DNA of 62,848 nt, the filler included, from Bacteriovoracaceae bacterium (GTDB lineage Bacteria > Bdellovibrionota > Bacteriovoracia > Bacteriovoracales > Bacteriovoracaceae), in assembly GCA_018649885.1 (NCBI GenBank). It is 3 parts of 3 records of this genome, joined end to end, with 100 filler letters (N's around TTAATTAATTAA, not from the genome) between each part and the next. Parts side by side here need not be neighbours in the genome. Positions count along the whole stretch, not along the records: positions 53,364 to 62,848 come from JABIHA010000065.1; 2 more parts are not named here. One strand, written 5' to 3'. Position 1 is the first letter of the stretch. The number at the start of each line of letters is the position of its first letter. Below, piece after piece: positions 24,664-62,848 of this stretch. The translations under genes were made by a program, and so were the position numbers. A model generated the notes under the pieces. It saw nothing but the letters and a program-made list of their open reading frames with translations, was not told the origin of the DNA and did no database searches.

Positions 24664-24763
24664 NNNNNNNNNNNNNNNNNNNNNNNNNNNNNNNNNNNNN
24701 NNNNNNNTTAATTAATTAANNNNNNNNNNNNNNNNNNNNNNNNNNNNNNNNNNNNNNNNNNNN
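24664..24763. other. Artificial contig-joining linker
   Basis: N44-TTAATTAATTAA-N44; stops in all six frames. Confidence 0.97.
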
Positions 24764-53263: not shown

Positions 53264-53363
53264 NNNNNNNNNNNNNNNNNNNNNNNNNNNNNNNNNNNNN
53301 NNNNNNNTTAATTAATTAANNNNNNNNNNNNNNNNNNNNNNNNNNNNNNNNNNNNNNNNNNNN
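53264..53363. other. Artificial contig-joining linker
   Basis: N44-TTAATTAATTAA-N44. Confidence 0.97.
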
Positions 53364-53579
53364 CGGATTATCCACGAGCGTGGACTTGGCGCCGGCGATG
53401 GGGAAGCTGCCGGCTCCATGGTAGAGATGAGACGAACCACCGAAATAAAAAAATTTAACAAAGCTTGAGGGTGCTGTGTTAAATGAATGCTTTATAGATT
53501 CAAGATAGATATTTTTATCGTGATCTCTCATTTGATCAATATCTTGAAAATCAATTTTGAAGGATTTTTTACTTTCCAC
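53364..53579 (-). CDS. 3'-truncated gene after VirB3/TraL, by position possibly the N-terminus of VirB4/TraC or TraE
   Basis: GTG start overlaps the upstream stop; runs into the contig end; identity from position only. Confidence 0.35.
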
Positions 53580-53826
53580 TTACAGCTCGCCTTAGATAGA
53601 TGATTCTTTTTTTTCTTAGACGAAACCAAAGGTAGTGGGGGGGAAGAAGTAGTCTGTAGCTTTTTAGTAAAATAATATAAATTGCACTTAAAATTAAGGA
53701 CATGAAAGACTCATTTAATATGGGTCCGCACAAAAAAATGATTACTCCTAGAACAAAAAATTCTGATATTCCAAGACCTAGAATCTTTGGACTTAATTTC
53801 AAGTACTGTGGGTAGCGTCTATTCAT
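53569..53826 (-). CDS. VirB3/TraL-like conjugation protein
   Basis: RYPQYL..SPKILGL...EF followed by two TM helices and a basic tail; directly after a pilin. Confidence 0.6.
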   Translation of the reverse strand: MNRRYPQYLKLSPKILGLGISEFFVLGVIIFLCGPILNESFMSLILSAIYIILLKSYRLLLPPHYLWFRLRKKRIIYLRRAVSGK

Positions 53827-53830
53827 AACC

Positions 53831-54085
53831 CTAACCCGTAATCTTTTTTAAAAGGGCCATTATTCCACCTGCTCCAAAAATTAAAATAGCAGCTGCAACT
53901 GCGCCTCCTAATTTCTCGCGGCCTTCTTGGGAGCCCTTAACATACAAGTAACCGGCCCAAATAAGGCCAATAACAACAACTCCAGAGCCGAGTCTTGTAA
54001 GTGAGCTCTCTGCACTTCTTGCCATACTCTCTAGAGACCTTGCTCCAAAACAAATACTTGGATAAAACATAATTAGATATTTCAT
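53831..54085 (-). CDS. VirB2/TrbC-like conjugative pilin
   Basis: 84 aa; signal, two hydrophobic helices separated by KGSQEGREKL, ending LIFGAGGI. Confidence 0.7.
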   Translation of the reverse strand: MKYLIMFYPSICFGARSLESMARSAESSLTRLGSGVVVIGLIWAGYLYVKGSQEGREKLGGAVAAAILIFGAGGIMALLKKITG

Positions 54086-55788
54086 AATGATTTTCTCCTT
54101 TCACCAAGAGTGATTACCTCGATGTCCATTGAAAAATGAATTTGATTTATATAGTTGAAGCTTCCAGCTTTTAGTGAGCCTGGAAGGGGATATTGGGGAC
54201 TGCGCTTATAAGTATCGTCTCTGATTGTTTTCATAAGCCCTTTGCAATCAGGCGGAGGAAATGTAACATTTCCACTTTTAATGGCCCCTGGATTGTCATG
54301 ATCATAAGCACCTGTTGAAACTGAGCGGTTTTCTGAAACTATGCCTACTTGAAGTGGGTCCTCTTCTTTAAATTCAAGGCCAATTTCATTTAGGTTTATT
54401 GAAATATGCAGGGACTTAAACTTATCGTTATAGCTAATTTGTAAGTGCTCTTTTTTAGATAGCTCTTTTAGAGAATATTTTGTCTCTCCAATATGTAGTT
54501 TAATTAGTTTTAAATCAAAGCTATTTGATAGTTTATGAAAGTCATTTTCTCTTTCAAATCTTTGCCCTCTTCTCCATTTGAAGGTGCAAAATCCATATTT
54601 TGAGCTTCCATTGCTAAATGTAGCATCAATTCTTTTTCCACCAAAAATTGTCAGATTAAGCTGATATGCCCCCGAGTTATCTGAGATATGTATTGTCTCT
54701 TCTTTTTTGCCAAGATCTCTTCTGGATATAAAACTACTTTGTTTTAACCCCTCAAGGATTTCGTAACCTGAGAGGTAGCTTAAAATTATTGTATCCCCTG
54801 ATGTGAGGACGTCCTCTTTTGTTAAAAACGGCCTTTTTGTGCTTAGTACAAACCATTTACTTTCATCAAGGTGGTCTTTTATATTTTTTATGCCAAGTGA
54901 CTCTTTTGTAGTGTTTATTTCACCTCTAAAAGAAAATAACTCCCCATTTTTAAAGCTCCACTGATCCTTTGCAAGATAATCTAAAATTTCTAAGAGTTGT
55001 ATTTTCCCATCAGCTCCTGTGGAGTAGTAAATGCGCTCACTTTCAGCTCCAGTGGATATGATAATCTCAACGCATTTTTGTAAAATTGAGCTTTTTAGAT
55101 CAGAAAGTGATTTTCCATCAAAGCTAATTTCCTTTGCCCTATATATTAAATTCTTACCACTTATTATTTCTTCGAAGACCTGGGGAGGAATAAGCTCATT
55201 TGTTAAATTTCGCTTGGATGCATTCAAATTATAAATAAAACTATTTTCTAAAATTTCAATTTCACTGAATTTAAACTCTATATTTTCATCAATAGGGACT
55301 ATCTTAATCTCACCTTCAATAAAGCTCTCACTTTCATATTCAAGATCTCCTGCCAGTGCCACTCTTGTGCCGACAAGATCATCTTTTTGAAATTGCACAC
55401 TTTCATAGTCACTATCAAATGATTCTTTTAAAACAAGCTCTCTTGAGTCTTTTGTTGAAATAAAATTAGAGACTTTTTTCTGGATGAGAGAGCTTAGTTG
55501 ATTGCTATCTGCATTTTCAGTTGATCTGAAAAAAAACCGCTTTAGGCTTCCATCTGGACTTATGATTTGCGAGCTAACTCTAAGATCACTTGCAATCACA
55601 AGGCTGTAGCCTGGAAGATCCGCAACCATTGGATCAGATCCATTTTCAATTTCAATCTTGTCTTCTATCCAGTCTCCGTCACTGTCTAGGTATATAATTG
55701 GGGCCTTTGTTTCTTCAATCTCCTGCGCCTTTTTAAATGAGCAGGAAAAAAAGACAAATAGACACCCCAAAGCAATTAATTTGCTCAT
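54082..55788 (-). CDS. Large lipoprotein with Ca-binding DSDGD..D..E..GSDP..AD motif
   Basis: Lipobox FFSC; 568 aa; overlaps the pilin start. Confidence 0.75.
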   Translation of the reverse strand: MSKLIALGCLFVFFSCSFKKAQEIEETKAPIIYLDSDGDWIEDKIEIENGSDPMVADLPGYSLVIASDLRVSSQIISPDGSLKRFFFRSTENADSNQLSSLIQKKVSNFISTKDSRELVLKESFDSDYESVQFQKDDLVGTRVALAGDLEYESESFIEGEIKIVPIDENIEFKFSEIEILENSFIYNLNASKRNLTNELIPPQVFEEIISGKNLIYRAKEISFDGKSLSDLKSSILQKCVEIIISTGAESERIYYSTGADGKIQLLEILDYLAKDQWSFKNGELFSFRGEINTTKESLGIKNIKDHLDESKWFVLSTKRPFLTKEDVLTSGDTIILSYLSGYEILEGLKQSSFISRRDLGKKEETIHISDNSGAYQLNLTIFGGKRIDATFSNGSSKYGFCTFKWRRGQRFERENDFHKLSNSFDLKLIKLHIGETKYSLKELSKKEHLQISYNDKFKSLHISINLNEIGLEFKEEDPLQVGIVSENRSVSTGAYDHDNPGAIKSGNVTFPPPDCKGLMKTIRDDTYKRSPQYPLPGSLKAGSFNYINQIHFSMDIEVITLGERRKSL

Positions 55789-55829
55789 CAGAAATTCCCG
55801 TATTTTGTGCTAAATTTACTTTTTAATTT

Positions 55830-56246
55830 TTATAAGCAAAAAAGTGCTCTCTCCAGTGGCGTTTTACCGTCTGGAATGACCTCGATACACTTTTTTCCAT
55901 TTGACTGAATCCCTGAGCCGACTCCGAAGCCCGTAAGGTTGAGATTTAATCCTGAAACTTGGTATTTTCCCTCATAGACAAGAAATCCTTGAGGATCACC
56001 AATTTCATATTCCCCCATGTCTTTTTTTAGAACCATCTGGTGACCTGTAAAAGAAGTTGATAAATTATCGGTGAGAACTTTCATATTGCCCTCGGTGCTC
56101 ATGAAGCTATCATAGTAAGAGTCTGCACTCTCACCATTAATACTCTTCTTCCCGCCGCCTGATCCGTCACCACCCGTGACGCCGTTATCATCGCTTCCGC
56201 AACTGGCAAGCGCTATAGTCATAATTAAAATTAGTATTTTTTTCAT
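55830..56246 (-). CDS. Small lipoprotein with GGDGSGGG motif
   Basis: Start reassigned to MKKILIL (ATG 56246, GGGGAG RBS); lipobox LASC. Confidence 0.8.
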   Translation of the reverse strand: MKKILILIMTIALASCGSDDNGVTGGDGSGGGKKSINGESADSYYDSFMSTEGNMKVLTDNLSTSFTGHQMVLKKDMGEYEIGDPQGFLVYEGKYQVSGLNLNLTGFGVGSGIQSNGKKCIEVIPDGKTPLERALFCL

Positions 56247-56280
56247 CTCTTCTCCCCATAGTGAACCCAATAGTTTGGTC

Positions 56281-56571
56281 CTAAACGTCCCCAGTTCCTT
56301 TATCTCTTTTTCCACCACCGCTCGATTCGCCTCCAAGATTCTTTGCAACAAGGCTACCTCGTAGGGTTTCAAGTCTTAATCCGCCACCACTATCATCACC
56401 ACCGCCGGCAGATCTAATTTCTTTAGGACCTTCAAGGTCATCATTTCCATTTCCTCTTCTTTTGATTGAGCCGTCTCTATCGCCCTTTTTGTTCATTGAT
56501 CCATCTCTGTCGCCTTTTGCAAAAGCGCCTACTGCCATCATTAAACTTAAAACTACAATTAAAACTTTCAT
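56281..56571 (-). CDS. Exported Gly-rich repeat peptide (candidate multi-peptide precursor)
   Basis: AGGGG RBS; signal peptide (..GAFA/K); KGDRDGS x2, GGDDSGGGLR, GGESSGGGKR; ends DV. Confidence 0.75.
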   Translation of the reverse strand: MKVLIVVLSLMMAVGAFAKGDRDGSMNKKGDRDGSIKRRGNGNDDLEGPKEIRSAGGGDDSGGGLRLETLRGSLVAKNLGGESSGGGKRDKGTGDV

Positions 56572-56616
56572 CTCTTTTCCCCTGTTGGTTGTTGTTATGA
56601 GTAAAACTATTAAAAC

Positions 56617-56901
56617 TTATACGTCTCTTGTGCTTCTGGGCCCAGGCCCTCCACCACCGGTAGACTTAATTCCTTTTGGACCGCCTCCACCACCACTAAG
56701 TGTAGTTAAGGCCAGTTGATCAAATTTACCTTCGAGCTTTAATCCACCACCGCTATCTTGGCCGGCCCTTATTTCTCGTATTCCACCACCGCTACCGTCA
56801 TCACCTTTTCTAGGCTTAGCGGCCATCAGGTCACTGGCCAAGGTGAAGGATATTGAAATAACCCCTAATGCGCACCGCGTTGTTTTGATGTACTTTTTCA
56901 T
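56617..56901 (-). CDS. Exported Gly-rich repeat peptide, paralog of 56281..56571
   Basis: AAGGAAGG RBS; signal-like N-terminus; GDDGSGGGIR, EIRAGQDSGGGLKLE, SGGGGGPK, STGGGGPGPR; ends DV. Confidence 0.72.
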   Translation of the reverse strand: MKKYIKTTRCALGVISISFTLASDLMAAKPRKGDDGSGGGIREIRAGQDSGGGLKLEGKFDQLALTTLSGGGGGPKGIKSTGGGGPGPRSTRDV

Positions 56902-57095
56902 CACTGCCTTCCTTTTTAGGATCTTGAATTTTAAGTACTTATGAGTCACTACCCATAAGAATTGTCATCAAGGCAACTATTAAATTAATTTCAGCCATAA
57001 AACCGGCCCTAAACAACTAAATCAATAGCTATTTCATAAGTGAAATGAAGTAATTACCCACGACTACTTGACGAGCCAGTTTTCAACACTTAAGT

Positions 57096-57127
57096 TACCC
57101 AGCAAGAATAATTATTCATCATGGGTA
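57096..57127. promoter_or_regulatory. Palindromic operator candidate in the divergent intergenic region
   Basis: TACCCA-gcaa-GAATAATTATTC-atca-TGGGTA; extra TACCCA half-sites at 56950 and 57055. Confidence 0.5.
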
Positions 57128-57137
57128 GGAGTTTTCA

Positions 57138-57944
57138 GTGGAAATGCCTTCTAGTACATGTGTTATTGCCAAAAAACTGATTGATGGTTTTAAGGCAAAA
57201 CACCCACACATTAAGAGTTCATCTCGAATTGCTCAGCTTATTGGGATTAAGCAATCATCCATTAATAGGATTGAGAATTTAAATGCCAACCCTAGCTATG
57301 AGCTTCTTGTTGACGTTGTAATTGGAACGGGAAATCAACATAGAATCATCGAAATTCTTGGTGACGTAAACGGAAGGTTAAAAGATTCATTCACTGAAAA
57401 TCTTAGCCATTTAAGAAACATGAAACCTCAATCTGATGAGCTAGAACAAGTCATTACGAAAGAGGAATACTCTTTGATATTACTGCTTGCAATGTCTGAA
57501 AAAGGTACCAGCTACAATGAGATAAAAGCAGAGCTTGGAGCACATGGTGTAAAAAACTTAGATAATCTCATCTCGCAAGGAATTCTTGAGTGTAAAGAAG
57601 GTAGAGTACAGAGATGGAACAAAGAAGGATTTAACCTTTCAATTGGAACAGTAAAGAAAGTTTTTGAGATTTGCCTAAAACACAGCTATGATCAATCACT
57701 TTTCGGTCTTGGAGAAAACTGGTGCAGTATTCACTTTGGAGACGCTGAGAAAAAGAAGGGAACTGATTTTATTCGACAAGTTATGAAAGAAGCTTATGAA
57801 AAAATTGACACTGAGTTTTCTAGTGGAAGACTTGATGCCGCTGACAAATCGAAGAACCATACATTCTTCGTAGGCATGGCTTCAGATGTCCTCAATAAGT
57901 CAAACTTCCTGAGCAACAACGAAGGTGGGGAGGCTTTACAATGA
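57138..57944 (+). CDS. XRE-type HTH regulator with internal wHTH and C-terminal domain (TIGR02147/DUF4423-like architecture)
   Basis: IAQLIGIKQSSINRIEN..ANPS; EIKAELG..G..NLD.L...GIL; GTG start with AGGAG RBS. Confidence 0.8.
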   Translation: MEMPSSTCVIAKKLIDGFKAKHPHIKSSSRIAQLIGIKQSSINRIENLNANPSYELLVDVVIGTGNQHRIIEILGDVNGRLKDSFTENLSHLRNMKPQSDELEQVITKEEYSLILLLAMSEKGTSYNEIKAELGAHGVKNLDNLISQGILECKEGRVQRWNKEGFNLSIGTVKKVFEICLKHSYDQSLFGLGENWCSIHFGDAEKKKGTDFIRQVMKEAYEKIDTEFSSGRLDAADKSKNHTFFVGMASDVLNKSNFLSNNEGGEALQ

Positions 57945-58189
57945 AACAACTAGCTATAATTCCCATGCTATGCTTATCAATAATATTCTCCAGCATGGCC
58001 AGTACCCCAAGTGAAGGTTATAAGCGCTCAGCTCTCAGTCTCGAAGATTACAAAATGGTTAAATATAGCCTACTTCCTCATGAAATAGAATCTGAAAGCT
58101 ATGACTCTGAAAATGGTATATTTGAACTAAGACTGTTTCACGGAATGATTTTAGAGGCTAGAAGTACAAATGGTGGCGGTGGAGGCTAA
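57941..58189 (+). CDS. Small exported protein ending in STNGGGGG
   Basis: ATGA overlap with the regulator stop, GGAGG RBS, signal peptide (..SSMA/S). Confidence 0.8.
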   Translation: MKQLAIIPMLCLSIIFSSMASTPSEGYKRSALSLEDYKMVKYSLLPHEIESESYDSENGIFELRLFHGMILEARSTNGGGGG

Positions 58190-58437
58190 TGGCTGATATT
58201 AATGGCACCGAATATACCCCGAGCCTAAGTTCGCGTCCCCCCAAAGAGACTTATCTAGAAAATAATCCTGATAGCAAAAAACTATTGAAACAAAAAAGAA
58301 GAAAGAAAGAAGGGCCAAATGGGCCATGGCATTTTTATTTTTTGCTTTCTTGCTCTTCATGGGTGTCTTTGCTTTTCTTAAAAATCATTTTGAATACCGG
58401 AGCTGATTTTGAAAAAATTTTGTATGAATTGTCTTGA
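58189..58437 (+). CDS. Small membrane hypothetical protein
   Basis: TAATG coupling, GGAGG RBS, basic stretch followed by one TM helix. Confidence 0.55.
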   Translation: MADINGTEYTPSLSSRPPKETYLENNPDSKKLLKQKRRKKEGPNGPWHFYFLLSCSSWVSLLFLKIILNTGADFEKILYELS

Positions 58438-58714
58438 AATTCATGAGTTTAAAAGGGGAAAGCTACCTATAAAAGTAAAGAGCTTTCTTCCAGACTTTCC
58501 TTTGTTAATCCTGGTCTTTATTTTTTCTTACCCAGATAAAATTAAAATGGGTCTAACCACAGTTCCAATACTTGTCTTAGTTCAAGTAATTTCGACTTAT
58601 TATCGTGAAAACTTTAAATGTAGCAAATGCAATCAAGGTTTTTCCGTAGAGCAAAACAGCCCCGTTGCAAATCTTCTCAAGAAACAATTGGGTAATGGAT
58701 CTGACAGTGAATAA
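58409..58714 (+). CDS. Small membrane protein with split zinc ribbon (LITAF-like topology)
   Basis: CMNC ... two hydrophobic segments ... CSKC; GGAG RBS before TTG. Confidence 0.6.
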   Translation: MKKFCMNCLEIHEFKRGKLPIKVKSFLPDFPLLILVFIFSYPDKIKMGLTTVPILVLVQVISTYYRENFKCSKCNQGFSVEQNSPVANLLKKQLGNGSDSE

Positions 58715-58746
58715 AACCAACTTATGTCCCAAGTGTAATTTGGGAT

Positions 58747-59781
58747 ATGCTACTCAATAAAAAAAGAGCAAATATGTATATGAAACTCAATCTTGTTTTT
58801 GATAGTTTGAAGAAATTTGGGATATCAATTGTATTCATTTCTTTAGTTTCCTGCGCCTCCACCAATAAAAGGAAAGAAATGAAAATAATTAACTTGAGAA
58901 ATGACTTGGTTTCTTTTTGGAAGGAAGCAAAAAATAAGGATCACGAGAAACGAGTCAATCTTTGGAACGAAGTCATTGAGCAAAAATACCCATACTTGTA
59001 TTCTAACCAAGTCTGGCGATCTGAGTCGAGAAAAGGATGGAAGGATTTTAAGGCAAAAAAATTAAAGGAAACTTTTTCTTACTATGACTCTAGCTTTGAA
59101 AAGGTTGTAGACATGTTTGATTCTTTTAATGAGACCTTATCGCGACAGATGAGTAAATATTCAAAACTCTTCCCCGGTAGTGATTTTTCTAACACCCCCA
59201 TTGTTGTACTTCCATCAGCTATGACTTTTAACGGTAGAGGTGGCTCCCATAAAGATTACCCAGATGTCCCTGTTCTTTATATGGGAATAGACTTTATATC
59301 TCAAAGAAACGACAACATTGATATTTTGTACTCCCATGAACTTTTCCATATCTATCATGTAGATAGAATGAAGGTTAATGAAGAAGTTTTTTTGAAGAAA
59401 GGGAAGATGACACTCCCACTGTGGTTAGAGGGGTTTGCAACATGGGTGAGTGGTGAGTTTAATGAAGACGGCCGTATTGATGAGCTTTTGATGGATGATA
59501 ATTTTGAAAGTATTGATAAGAAAATTCTTAGAAGTGTTTCTTTAAGATTTTTACAAGATGCAGACAAATTAGTAACAGCAGATAAAATGAATATTTATCA
59601 ATCATGGTTCAATATGGATCAACCTCCCGTCATAAATGGCCTTCCTTCAAGGTTAGGCTATTTCCTTGGTTACTTTGTGGTCGATGAAATAGCTAAGAAA
59701 AACGATATTAAAGATATGGTTTTTTGGGATCATGAACGAGTGCACAAAGAAGTTGTATCAGCTCTCCAGCATTTGAAGTAA
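58747..59781 (+). CDS. Putative Zn-dependent protease lipoprotein (DUF2268-like)
   Basis: Lipobox LVSC, HELFH, downstream EG.A, RLGYFLGY; true start may be slightly downstream. Confidence 0.8.
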   Translation: MLLNKKRANMYMKLNLVFDSLKKFGISIVFISLVSCASTNKRKEMKIINLRNDLVSFWKEAKNKDHEKRVNLWNEVIEQKYPYLYSNQVWRSESRKGWKDFKAKKLKETFSYYDSSFEKVVDMFDSFNETLSRQMSKYSKLFPGSDFSNTPIVVLPSAMTFNGRGGSHKDYPDVPVLYMGIDFISQRNDNIDILYSHELFHIYHVDRMKVNEEVFLKKGKMTLPLWLEGFATWVSGEFNEDGRIDELLMDDNFESIDKKILRSVSLRFLQDADKLVTADKMNIYQSWFNMDQPPVINGLPSRLGYFLGYFVVDEIAKKNDIKDMVFWDHERVHKEVVSALQHLK

Positions 59782-59942
59782 GGGGAAAAAGCAACTATTT
59801 GATATAACTCGTTTCAAATAACAATGTATGAGTCGAAACTCACTGAGAAGGCTTCGATATAAGAATTGGCATTATTCAAAACAGCTTTAGCCAAGACTCG
59901 ATCAGATCATCATGCATGCAACTACCATGCTTTTTAGTCATG

Positions 59943-59970
59943 ATGCCCTATAACAGGTGTTATAAGGCAT
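59943..59970. other. 28-bp 11-6-11 inverted repeat (tyrosine-recombinase-like site or operator)
   Basis: ATGCCCTATAA-CAGGTG-TTATAAGGCAT. Confidence 0.45.
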
Positions 59971-60038
59971 TGAATTTATTGCACTTCCATGAAATTTGTT
60001 TATAAAACATTTATCCAAACCTGCACTTTCCAGAGTGC

Positions 60039-60070
60039 TTCACATTGTACTCAATTTCGAGTACGATGTG
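60039..60070 (+). promoter_or_regulatory. Sigma70 promoter of the TA operon, overlapped by a palindromic operator
   Basis: TTCACA-N17-TACGAT; inverted repeat CACATTGTACTC-N6-GAGTACGATGTG (60041-60070). Confidence 0.7.
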
Positions 60071-60073
60071 TTA

Positions 60074-60330
60074 ATGATCACGGAAGTTCGATTGTCGAAA
60101 AAGGCTCAGAAAGATTTAAAAAGTGTTCCTCAAAACATTTTGAGAAAATTTATGATCTGGGTTCAATTTGTTGAGGAGTTAGGAAAACTCCAGGGTTTCA
60201 CTTAAAAGGGAATAGAAAAGGTCAAAGATCAATAAGGTTGAATAAAGCTTATAGGGCCATTTATATAGTAAATAATGATGGATCTATTGAGTTTGTAGAA
60301 GTATTGGAGGTAAATAAGCATGAGTACTAA
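60074..60330 (+). pseudogene. higB: HigB/RelE-family toxin, frameshifted
   Basis: MITEVRLSKKAQKDLKSVPQNILRKF..WVQFVEE, then in the -1 frame VRKTPGFHLKGNRKGQRSIRLNKAYRAIY..EVNKHEY*. Confidence 0.8.
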
Positions 60331-60628
60331 CGCTAAAAAAATTCTGAAAAAATTAAACAAAGGCGACCTCTCCTTTGGTGATATGCTACTTACGATCAGA
60401 GAGACAGATGATATTACCCAGGCCGATCTTGCTAAAAAATGTAGAGTGTCGAGGGGTCTTATCTGTGACATTGAAAAAGGGCGTAGACTCCCTACTCTTG
60501 AGCAAGTTAAAATTTTTGCAGAAAAACTTGGTTATCCTATCCAAGGATTCTTAGCGCAAGTTCTAGAAGATCAATTGAAAAGTGCTAACTTAAAAAATTA
60601 TAAGGTTAAAGTGGAAGCAGCAAGTTGA
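60320..60628 (+). CDS. higA: HigA-like XRE antitoxin
   Basis: LSFGDML..IRE....TQADLAK...VSR..ICDIEKGRR; overlaps the toxin end; GGAGG RBS. Confidence 0.85.
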   Translation: MSTNAKKILKKLNKGDLSFGDMLLTIRETDDITQADLAKKCRVSRGLICDIEKGRRLPTLEQVKIFAEKLGYPIQGFLAQVLEDQLKSANLKNYKVKVEAAS

Positions 60629-60742
60629 TGACACCTACCTCCCCTATTTTTAGGATGCCTATCGTTTCTTTACTGCCACATACTCCACGGACGAAGTTTT
60701 CTCAATTGAGTTATCTGAAGCCAGATCTTTAATAAAGAAAGA

Positions 60743-61441
60743 TTAATATCGATATACAAAAAGTTTTAATCTAACGAAGATTAAAGATAGCCACATTAAA
60801 AAATTCATGATCATTGGCCGAGTTCCTCTAATTCTAGGCTTATCAACAACTGATAGTATATATTTGGAAGCCTTGACCTTTGAAATCATAAACGGCCTTA
60901 TCGATGCTTTTGCCATCTTTGTATTCACAAATCCAAATCTTATATTACTTATTCTTACGTTCGTCTTGGACAAAGCCAGTGCCAACCCTTCCCAGTAATT
61001 AGTTAAAGCTGACTTGGAGGCATTGTAACTAGGTGCTTCTTGTGAGGGCGCAAGGTCAGCAATTGAACTTAGACCGATGAAGTGGCCATGGTTATTTTTG
61101 ATCATATCATTGATCACAAGCTCTGTTGTAATAACTCCAGCCAATAAATTTACTTCAAAAACCTTTGTCTCAAATCGAATATTATTTGGGTCAAATCGTT
61201 CACCGATTCCAACAAAAAAAATACATAAGTCTATTTTTCTAAGTGACAGAGAGCGCGATAAAACTTCTCGGTACTCATCGCTGCTGACATCAACTACAAT
61301 ATGATTGTAACTGCTGTTCTCAATTGTAGAAGCACTTCTTGAGATTCCTGTTACATTGTATCCAATATCTAGTAGTCGTTTTGTAGTCTCTAGACCTATT
61401 CCATCAGAGTTACCAATTAAAAGTGCTACGTCTCCACTCAT
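60743..61441 (-). CDS. Short-chain dehydrogenase/reductase
   Basis: GNSDGIG, SS, YNASK, GFVNT.M. Confidence 0.9.
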   Translation of the reverse strand: MSGDVALLIGNSDGIGLETTKRLLDIGYNVTGISRSASTIENSSYNHIVVDVSSDEYREVLSRSLSLRKIDLCIFFVGIGERFDPNNIRFETKVFEVNLLAGVITTELVINDMIKNNHGHFIGLSSIADLAPSQEAPSYNASKSALTNYWEGLALALSKTNVRISNIRFGFVNTKMAKASIRPFMISKVKASKYILSVVDKPRIRGTRPMIMNFLMWLSLIFVRLKLFVYRY

Positions 61442-61602
61442 TTTCAAAACCTATTTCATTATTGTGATTTTTAATCATCGCTTTTTTACTATAAAAAAAT
61501 GCCTCAAATACGATTCCCCCCGTACGTTTAAAATAAGTCCAAATCTCACAAAGGGCAATTGCTCTCAGGTAATTGTGGTAAAAGAATTGAATATGAAAAC
61601 AG

Positions 61603-62709
61603 TTACAGAGAAAGCCCTAATTCTTTTTTGACTTCATTAGCATTCATTTGGCCAAGTTGTCTCCGCCCTCCCCTATCATTAATCCAGCTTAAATCTGTTT
61701 CAGATAAGGTTTCTTGAAAATCATCTGGTAGAGGCGTATTTGCATCAAATCTTGAGATGGCCTCCCAAATTAGGTTGGCATTAACTCCCCTAGAGTTTTT
61801 CCCATCGACCCTATTTCTAATTGCGTCTATAGTTCCACTATTGAGGTATGAGAATGGATGAATACATGGTGTACCCTTAAGATCACCTTTCTCAATTAAG
61901 TCTAAGCCTAGCTTTCCTATTTCAGTGAGCTCATGCCCCTTAGCGACTAACTCCCCTACTACCTTGGATTCTTTTTCTCTAATGGCGTCATCTGTAATGG
62001 CAGCTAAAACCTTTGAGACGTTATCATTATCTATACTTGAAGAGCTTGGTTTCTCTGAGTTGTTATTTGTGGCAATTCCAAAAAAATCTGCTCTTAAAAA
62101 GAAGCCATTTTTTCTAGTTTTTGGATCTGTGATAACTCCAATAATTCCATTTTCAAGTAAGTTATTTCTACAAGCATCAAATCTATTTAATTTTATATTA
62201 CCTTCAGTTGAAATTTCTGGTCTAGAAAGATAGGCAACTTGCTTATTCCACCCAAGTGTTTTTCTTAATATTAAAAGAAGAAATCTCATTTCTGTCACAT
62301 TTAAATTAGATAAAACTATTTTTTCCAGCACTTGGTTATGAATTATAGTAAATTCTTTAGTTGGTTTAGGAAGAGCATTCTCAAGAAGTTTCTTTGAAAG
62401 CACTTGCTTCGCTTTCTTTTTTGGCTTCTTTACAACAATTCTTTTTATTACTGGGCCCTCAGGTCTTCTTTCTTCTACTGGGCTTGCAATTATTTCTTGT
62501 TTTGGTTCTATGATTTTATGTGTGCTGCTCTCTTCTGTCTTTTCTTCTGGTTCAGCCAAGCTTTTGACTTCAAGCTTTTCCAAAGCAGGCTCTTCATCTA
62601 GGGCCTCATAAAGCCTGCGCCTTCGTTTTTTGGGTTTTTTAACAGACTCACTTGGAGTGCTGTCTATTCCCTTCTTCTTTAAAATTTCATCTATGCTATT
62701 TGTAGACAT
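61603..62709 (-). CDS. Replication initiator-like protein with phage lambda O-type N-domain and disordered charged N-terminus
   Basis: FTIIHNQVLEKI..SNL...EMRFLLLILRKTLGWNK....LS..EI matches the Phage_rep_O pattern. Confidence 0.7.
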   Translation of the reverse strand: MSTNSIDEILKKKGIDSTPSESVKKPKKRRRRLYEALDEEPALEKLEVKSLAEPEEKTEESSTHKIIEPKQEIIASPVEERRPEGPVIKRIVVKKPKKKAKQVLSKKLLENALPKPTKEFTIIHNQVLEKIVLSNLNVTEMRFLLLILRKTLGWNKQVAYLSRPEISTEGNIKLNRFDACRNNLLENGIIGVITDPKTRKNGFFLRADFFGIATNNNSEKPSSSSIDNDNVSKVLAAITDDAIREKESKVVGELVAKGHELTEIGKLGLDLIEKGDLKGTPCIHPFSYLNSGTIDAIRNRVDGKNSRGVNANLIWEAISRFDANTPLPDDFQETLSETDLSWINDRGGRRQLGQMNANEVKKELGLSL

Positions 62710-62727
62710 ATTTTATTTCCGTAATTT

Positions 62728-62847
62728 TTAGTGTTTTAAATCTTCTCCGAAATCTAATAAAAACTTAAAGTACATATCGTAGTCATCTTTTGCTTGAGAT
62801 GCTCTTGGAGATGCATAAATTGTCTCTTTGTTTGCAATGGATTTATC
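62728..62847 (-). CDS. parA: C-terminus of a ParA-family ATPase (truncated by window)
   Basis: DKSIANKETIYASPRASQAKDDYDMYFKFLLDFGEDLKH* resembles the ParA terminal helix motif; directly upstream of the rep-like gene. Confidence 0.55.
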   Translation of the reverse strand, partial: DKSIANKETIYASPRASQAKDDYDMYFKFLLDFGEDLKH

Positions 62848-62848
62848 A

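Follow-up and report, generated by a model that had tools for sequence, protein, structure and literature searches.

The closest described counterparts of the locus reported here are the RRNPP regulators and the PrgX/prgQ system. The RRNPP systems (Rap-Phr of ICEBs1 and pLS20, AimR-AimP, PlcR-PapR, NprR) have a signature of five criteria, which in the excerpted text of PMC10075063 comprise a receptor of 250-500 aa, tetratricopeptide repeats (TPR) in that receptor, an adjacent propeptide gene, a propeptide of 10-100 aa and a secretion signal on it. In PrgX/prgQ (iCF10) of pCF10, the peptide gene lies directly behind the conjugation promoter, and regulation is by a DNA-binding peptide receptor (excerpts of PMC6540685). 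The excerpted part of a 2026 review assigns linear peptides to Gram-positive bacteria and has none among the quorum signals of Gram-negatives (PMC13419125). Here we describe, in a 62,848-nt stretch (the window) from the genome of a Bacteriovoracaceae bacterium (GCA_018649885.1; phylum Bdellovibrionota), a locus in which a DNA-binding regulator is paired with a small exported protein carrying a short glycine-rich string, or tag. Contigs C27, C28 and C32 are joined in the window by N spacers at 24664-24763 and 53264-53363, so that no gene to the left of 53364 is a genuine neighbour of the locus, which is on C32 (9485 bp, window 53364-62848); the genome surveyed comprises 5.4 Mb in 151 contigs. 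The pair of regulator and Gly-tagged exported partner is a real, conserved and undescribed module, and its pattern suggests an undescribed peptide-signalling switch in Gram-negative bacteria.

The regulator (57138..57944, + strand, 268 aa; HTH_3 match, E 3e-4) and its 82-aa partner (57941..58189, +) share an ATGA overlap. The partner has a signal peptide, a small beta-rich body and a C-terminal tag, RSTNGGGGG (58160..58186, +), which its sequence, the tags of the family and the K/R before the Gly run mark as the putative ligand. It matches no Pfam family, and an atlas search gave no usable family for it. The open reading frames (ORFs), the Gly motifs, the RSTNGGGGG-stop and the coupling to an XRE regulator all lie where the initial annotation had placed them. 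Homologous loci were sampled as 60 stretches around the best-scoring of ~150 matches plus four loci of this genome, giving 64 loci with 67 regulator frames. Signal peptides were assigned by a simple charge/hydrophobicity rule, the Gly-tag pattern was composed post hoc, after inspection of the loci, and related genomes make the counts non-independent. A signal-peptide ORF starts within 25 nt of the regulator stop in 60 of the 67 frames, at an offset of -4 or -1 in 53. These partners are 53-236 aa long, and a Gly tag is present at the mature N-terminus or the C-terminus in 47 of the 60, compared with 18 of 825 small signal-peptide ORFs of the genome. The expectation of the initial annotation that homologs of the regulator would have Gly-tailed partners is thus borne out. 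A literature search, mostly without subscription papers and not covering supplements, found no published description of the pair or its tags.

The AlphaFold2 (AF2) model of the regulator is confident (pLDDT 92) and consists of an XRE helix-turn-helix (HTH) domain (residues ~1-92), a winged helix (~98-165) and an alpha/beta C-terminal domain. It leaves no room for repeats, in agreement with the annotators' remark that no TPR-type sensor was apparent. No TPR family is found among the top 25 Pfam families of 119 regulator relatives, ten of which show weak AimR matches alongside other HTH models. Foldseek and PDB sequence searches with the regulator returned HTH-level matches only, those to pentatricopeptide repeat proteins being single short stretches, and the phage and plasmid collections searched contained no match to it. 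The closest fold match of residues 97-252 is Kfla_6221 (PDB 4G6Q), with Z 9.2 (9.4 for a second model) and a root-mean-square deviation (rmsd) of 5.7 over 143 aligned residues. At 8-11% identity and an rmsd >5, and with neither an XRE domain nor a known function, Kfla_6221 allows no functional transfer. Strands of the C-terminal domain are left unpaired in both monomer models, which suggests that a dimer is probably needed. A co-fold of two regulators together with two copies of the 51-82 segment of the partner, run with controls absent, scored 0.02 (mark 0.32), which speaks neither for nor against binding.

Compared with the RRNPP signature as excerpted from PMC10075063, the locus shares four of the five criteria, counting an apparent Sec signal. 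The propeptides are 82, 94 and 96 aa long (the latter two being the multi-tag peptides described below), and the 268-aa receptor adjoins a propeptide gene; the propeptide signal passes the charge/hydrophobicity rule only. The locus also resembles these systems in lying on a conjugative element. It differs from them in the lack of TPR, an unrelated fold, a Gram-negative host and a precursor with a folded body, and its ligand is a predicted one. Lacking TPR, the regulator is not an RRNPP member by this signature, though it may work like one.

The window regulator matches neither of the curated models TIGR02147 and PF14394, and is outside the 30 TIGR02147 matches of this genome. TIGR02147 is present in 50 of 61 sampled genomes of the phylum and is matched weakly by 5 of the 119 members of the regulator's branch. 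A profile of these 119 relatives aligns with classic TIGR02147 members over 238 columns (hhalign 98.15%, E 6e-14) and recovers them at full length (E 1.8e-11); the lead from the atlas was DUF4423 (0.86). These sequence comparisons place the regulator in the uncharacterised TIGR02147/DUF4423 superfamily as a divergent member, homologous over its full length. The literature search found no functional description of the superfamily; DUF4423 is named in the excerpted text of PMC12546842 for Bd3700, one of the tabulated proteins that are increased while growing in prey. The window branch has 635 representatives in a 50% library, and its nearest atlas cluster is mostly Bdellovibrionota. Sampled genomes that contain it number 49 of 67 within the same family and 9 of 233 outside it, and five members are in this genome (on C32, C138, C135, C86 and C82).

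Tags fall into classes (GEVTGAG, GGDGSGG, GGDMGGG, GVDGGG and, on C32 and C138, STxGGGG) that track regulator clades in a quick maximum-likelihood tree. For the 32 C-tagged partners, identity at the four variable tag positions is 0.78 when the regulators are 50-70% identical (45 non-independent pairs), compared with 0.26 for the partner body; below 35% regulator identity both values are 0.23, the baseline. The tag is therefore conserved above its carrier and follows the regulator clade, in line with the comparative checks that the initial annotation had suggested. Partners repeat their own tag exactly in 14 of 60 cases (shuffles: mean 0.01, maximum 1), some of them at both ends, and the tag switches between the N- and C-terminus across partners. 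These exact repeats and this mobility indicate that the short string is the unit, not its place or carrier. In 29 of the 32 C-tagged partners, the terminal Gly run has a K or R 4-9 residues ahead of it (background 0.53). Loosely tagged exported ORFs of this genome cluster around regulators: 17 of the 38 have one within 2 kb, compared with 60 of 1735 untagged ones. That the Gly-rich strings are neutral linkers or tails is extremely improbable, and is largely refuted for the coupled partners by this enrichment, by the conservation above the body and by the exact repeats. Many lipoproteins of the genome do carry Gly/Ser tethers, and the linker explanation may hold for a 138-aa lipoprotein of the locus (55830..56246, -), in which GGDGSGGG, a tag or a tether, follows the lipobox.

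The paralogous loci on C32 and C138 provide a close comparison. The HTH (70/75) and the promoter are kept between them, whereas the winged helix (31/68), the C-terminal domain (35/90), the partner and the tag differ. Divergence of sensor part, partner and tag would be as expected of specificity switching. C32 and C138 are near-sister conjugative elements that also share the pilin; their 568- and 591-aa lipoproteins are only 27% identical, and differ as the sensor part and partner do.

We consider it about an even call that the tag is a released and re-imported ligand of its own regulator, following RRNPP-like logic with an unrelated receptor and here gating conjugation. The regulator would bind the divergent promoter through its XRE domain, and the coupled gene would give a Sec-exported precursor, from which a Gly tag of 7-9 residues would be freed in the periplasm or outside. 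Release may be by signal peptidase when the tag is N-terminal, and by a cut after K/R when it is C-terminal. The tag would return via an oligopeptide permease and bind the winged-helix/DUF4423-like part of its own regulator, and binding would change expression of the divergent operon, here for conjugation. The analogy with Phr and iCF10 makes it likeliest that accumulating tag would report the element as "already common" and dampen transfer at high donor density. The multi-tag peptides, encoded at the start of the tra operon, would add the tags of other elements. Where regulator and partner are split, no membrane link joins them, and a tag that acts on the regulator would need some diffusible route to it. 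The genome has six Opp/Dpp-type binding proteins, which are common and so count for little in favour of re-import.

The tight translational coupling, with 53 of 60 partners at -4/-1, would also give the 1:1 synthesis needed by an export monitor. Here the tag of a newly made precursor would bind the regulator in the cytoplasm as an anti-regulator until Sec export removed the precursor, following the logic of FlgM and ExsE, and no extracellular signal would exist. Clade-specific tags and regulator-partner fusions would then be explained without processing or uptake. We regard this as unlikely: a monitor needs neither the K/R before the tag (29/32) nor repeated basic-flanked modules, has no need of free-standing multi-tag peptides bearing the tags of other elements, and makes it hard to explain why dozens of paralogs per genome should sense the same Sec state.

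Eleven over-long relatives of the regulator were fetched. Eight are fusions of regulator, transmembrane (TM) segment, body and tag (six with clear tags, two degenerate), two are kinase-like fusions and one has an N-terminal extension. That the tag persists in fused proteins counts in favour of the ligand reading. The first kind, together with the two fusions to histidine-kinase-like domains (P0079, P0148) and kinase-like genes divergent at several loci, could point to a membrane relay, in which body or tag is sensed in the periplasm by a membrane protein (or by the TM segment in fusions) that controls the regulator. The fusions, however, retain a signal-peptidase-like site after the TM segment (by eye), most loci are split, and no conserved membrane partner was seen in the part of the flanks viewed; such a relay is thus very unlikely. 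In the AF2 monomer of a natural fusion (P0014), the tag is at low confidence. P0079, P0148 and G000:C86:10252-10953 show regulators fused, judged by eye, to histidine-kinase-like and receiver-like domains, and the domains of the divergent kinase-like genes were likewise assigned by eye.

The pair is not confined to the window branch. Among classic TIGR02147 loci, 23 of 29 in the phylum sample are coupled and 21 tagged (one of 30 loci left out). In named genomes, for which 55 of 80 loci were examined after 25 close relatives had been left out and patterns were again post hoc, 45 of 55 are coupled and 42 tagged, with Myxococcota, Fibrobacterota, Chitinispirillaceae and Nitrospira among them. Classic loci thus share with the window branch full-length homology and a regulator with an overlapping exported ORF bearing a short Gly tag. 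The window branch differs in scoring below both models, in its small partners with often C-terminal tags ending GG(G), where the classic tag is G-N-[PG], and in its frequent tie to a conjugative type IV secretion system (T4SS). Classic partners range from nearly bare precursors of 47, 67 and 71 aa, the latter two repeating the tag, to serpin, I9-inhibitor, META and Ig-like proteins. The nearly bare precursors speak for the tag as a ligand. The tagged partners at L178, L190 and L198 include a serpin, an I9 peptidase inhibitor and META/HslJ, which hints at feedback on extracytoplasmic proteolysis.

Such carriers raise the alternative that the tag serves as a signal for sorting, processing or modification and is recognised outside the cytoplasm by a protease, a transpeptidase or a surface-export machine, and that the regulator merely controls an operon whose first gene is exported. 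In Myxococcota and Fibrobacterota, G-T-E-x-G-N-P follows the lipobox of unrelated large proteins, and 21 of the 38 loosely tagged exported ORFs of this genome lie away from a regulator. The GNG type of tag, on the other hand, occurs in only 12 of 1773 exported ORFs of the genome, 7 of them beside a TIGR02147 gene. Moreover, a shared machine would not need clade-dependent tags, and sorting does not account for tags at either end or for bare 47-71 aa precursors without cargo. We consider a sorting role improbable, at about the level of the export monitor. One orphan exported peptide of 57 aa (G000:C29:16757-16930, -) contains ESGPGNGG, the same string as the tag of a TIGR02147 partner on C16; no regulator is near it, and it is a candidate free-standing signal gene.

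Several observations weigh against the tag as a re-imported ligand. Thirteen of the 60 coupled partners miss the tag pattern; by eye, a variant tag can be made out in about half of them, and about six are without a visible tag. Ten of the 55 classic loci have no coupled exported ORF, and the classic tag on large unrelated proteins, often lipoproteins, would serve equally naturally as a tether or sorting signal. No T4SS gene is present in the DNA fetched for 43 of the 64 loci; for several loci of the whole set, <3 kb of upstream DNA was available. Kin share tags, so that the tracking of clades is no proof of co-evolution, and 8 of the 32 C-tags share GDGS across two clades, which limits private channels. 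In the fusions, regulator and tag are on opposite sides of the membrane, an arrangement that fits ToxR-like signalling too. Gly-rich, low-information peptides are also unlike the ligands known from RRNPP systems.

The link to conjugation is evident at the window locus. Leftward of the regulator run, all on the - strand, multi-tag exported peptide A (56617..56901, 94 aa), the first gene of the tra operon; multi-tag exported peptide B (56281..56571, 96 aa); the 138-aa lipoprotein; a 568-aa lipoprotein with a DSDGD motif (54082..55788); a VirB2/TrbC pilin (53831..54085; PF04956, E 2.6e-8); a VirB3/TraL-like protein (53569..53826); and the start of VirB4 (53364..53579), cut by the contig end. Of the VirB2- and VirB3/TraL-like genes named in the initial annotation, the TrbC match is above cut-off and the TraL match only below it (PF07178, E 0.005; TIGR02762, E 0.0008). 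The 568-aa lipoprotein, which that annotation did not mention, belongs to no Pfam family; its homologs precede pilin/VirB4 genes in related loci, where it opens the T4SS gene block. Contig C144 overlaps the end of C32 (141/141 nt), so that VirB4 continues into an ORF with P-loop_TraG (E 5e-15), and carries VirB4, VirB9, VirB10, a weak relaxase match (Replic_Relax, E 4e-4, below cut-off) and a VirD4 coupling protein. Since the paralogous C138 ends at the same place as C32, C144 may continue either element. A conjugative T4SS set (pilin, VirB4, VirB9/10, coupling protein, weak relaxase) is present, and the contigs end inside the element.

Profiles made from the T4SS genes of this genome place the 568-aa lipoprotein or VirB4 on the divergent side in 21 of the 64 loci (18 of 59 from other genomes). 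Among them are 19 of the 32 C-tagged loci, and the GEVTGAG clade contributes none. A system dedicated to conjugation was rejected, given 43 of 64 loci without T4SS genes and none with them in that clade; the regulator/tag switch is often, not always, on conjugative elements. Of the proposal that the locus is a mobile-element switch, the T4SS link (21/64) stands, but the pair is not special to mobile elements, classic members in several phyla being coupled as well.

The divergent promoter region (56902..57137, 236 nt, no strand) contains TACCCA four times, at 56950, 57055 and 57096 and, inverted, at 57122 beside the ribosome-binding site of the regulator, with 0.09 expected. Any hexamer occurs four times in only 1 of 1000 shuffles of this spacer. 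The last two sites form an inverted pair, and all four are kept in C138. On motif evidence these are candidate operators, which the regulator may bind. Scans for sigma-70 promoters and terminators gave chance-level results.

The peptide genes at the head of the operon are composed of tag-like modules. Peptide A has GDDGSGGGIR, GQDSGGGLK, SGGGGGPK and STGGGGPGPR, mostly K/R-flanked, peptide B has GGDDSGGGLR and GGESSGGGKR, and the 138-aa lipoprotein has GGDGSGGGKK. Compared with C138, the signal region of peptide A has an intact frame, with 8 codons changed synonymously and 7 by replacement; for the lipoprotein, whose C138 copy is 91% identical, the corresponding numbers are 22 and 13. On C138, peptide B is without some modules, in frame; shorter relatives are on C86, and there is a single database homolog. 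Modules are thus gained and lost between C32 and C138, and the last modules of peptide A have been lost in C138 via a 58-nt deletion, confirmed in an independent contig and a run. Among the loci fetched and in a database search, multi-tag peptides were found only on C32, C138 and C86. They were rejected as a conserved family feature and are an add-on of this genome's elements, not the core of the cassette in which the initial annotation had listed them.

Some modules match the tags of co-resident elements. GQDSGGG of peptide A is the tail of the C86 partner, and STGTGGGG in a C86 peptide is the tail of the C138 partner. Each tail is present once in the set of 32 C-tagged partners; between the STGTGGGG copies, 6 of 8 third codon positions are different. 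DGSGGG matches the C135 tag, but is the commonest tag. These copies fit cross-talk between co-resident elements; shared ancestry and module shuffling is the alternative explanation, and two exact matches are few. PrgX/prgQ, as described in the excerpts of PMC6540685, is similar in that a peptide gene lies right behind the promoter of the conjugation operon. The present locus differs in having two multi-module precursors, several tags and a separate coupled partner, and shows no homology to PrgX.

Contigs assembled from four marine metagenome runs include pieces identical to the window, for example 56180-56522 and 57248-57866, with zero differences, and the C138 variant is likewise present in contigs of those runs. 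An assembly artefact was rejected, given these independent contigs. Downstream of the partner on the same strand is an exported-looking DUF2268 zinc peptidase (58747-59781, +, E 1.9e-5), a possible processing enzyme, which is absent from the corresponding place in C138. At the C135 locus, HEXXH proteins and CAAX-protease-like ORFs adjoin the regulator (by eye). Farther along C32, an XRE protein (59996-60628, +) is preceded by a short ORF without a Pfam match, possibly forming a HigBA-like pair, and a phage O-like (repO-like) replication protein lies at 61603-62709 (-; PF04492, E 3.4e-8).

In its widest form, the ligand reading would make TIGR02147/DUF4423 a large family of non-TPR cytoplasmic peptide receptors, spread over Gram-negative phyla (Bdellovibrionota, Myxococcota, Fibrobacterota and others), in which each receptor recognises a short tag released from the exported partner that belongs to it. 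Conjugative elements of the predator family would gate transfer by such receptors, and this element would broadcast co-resident tags (GQDSGGG of C86, STGTGGGG of C138, DGSGGG of C135) to jam or steer competitors. We hold this extension tentatively and think it rather doubtful. If the tag is not a ligand, it would still be an undescribed, clade-specific export or processing signal. If it is, a regulator family of up to dozens of copies per genome would gain a mechanism, with a ligand that is predictable from the next gene, and peptide-gated regulation would gain a new variant. In predatory Gram-negative bacteria, conjugation would then be under the control of peptides, and elements may interfere with each other's signals.

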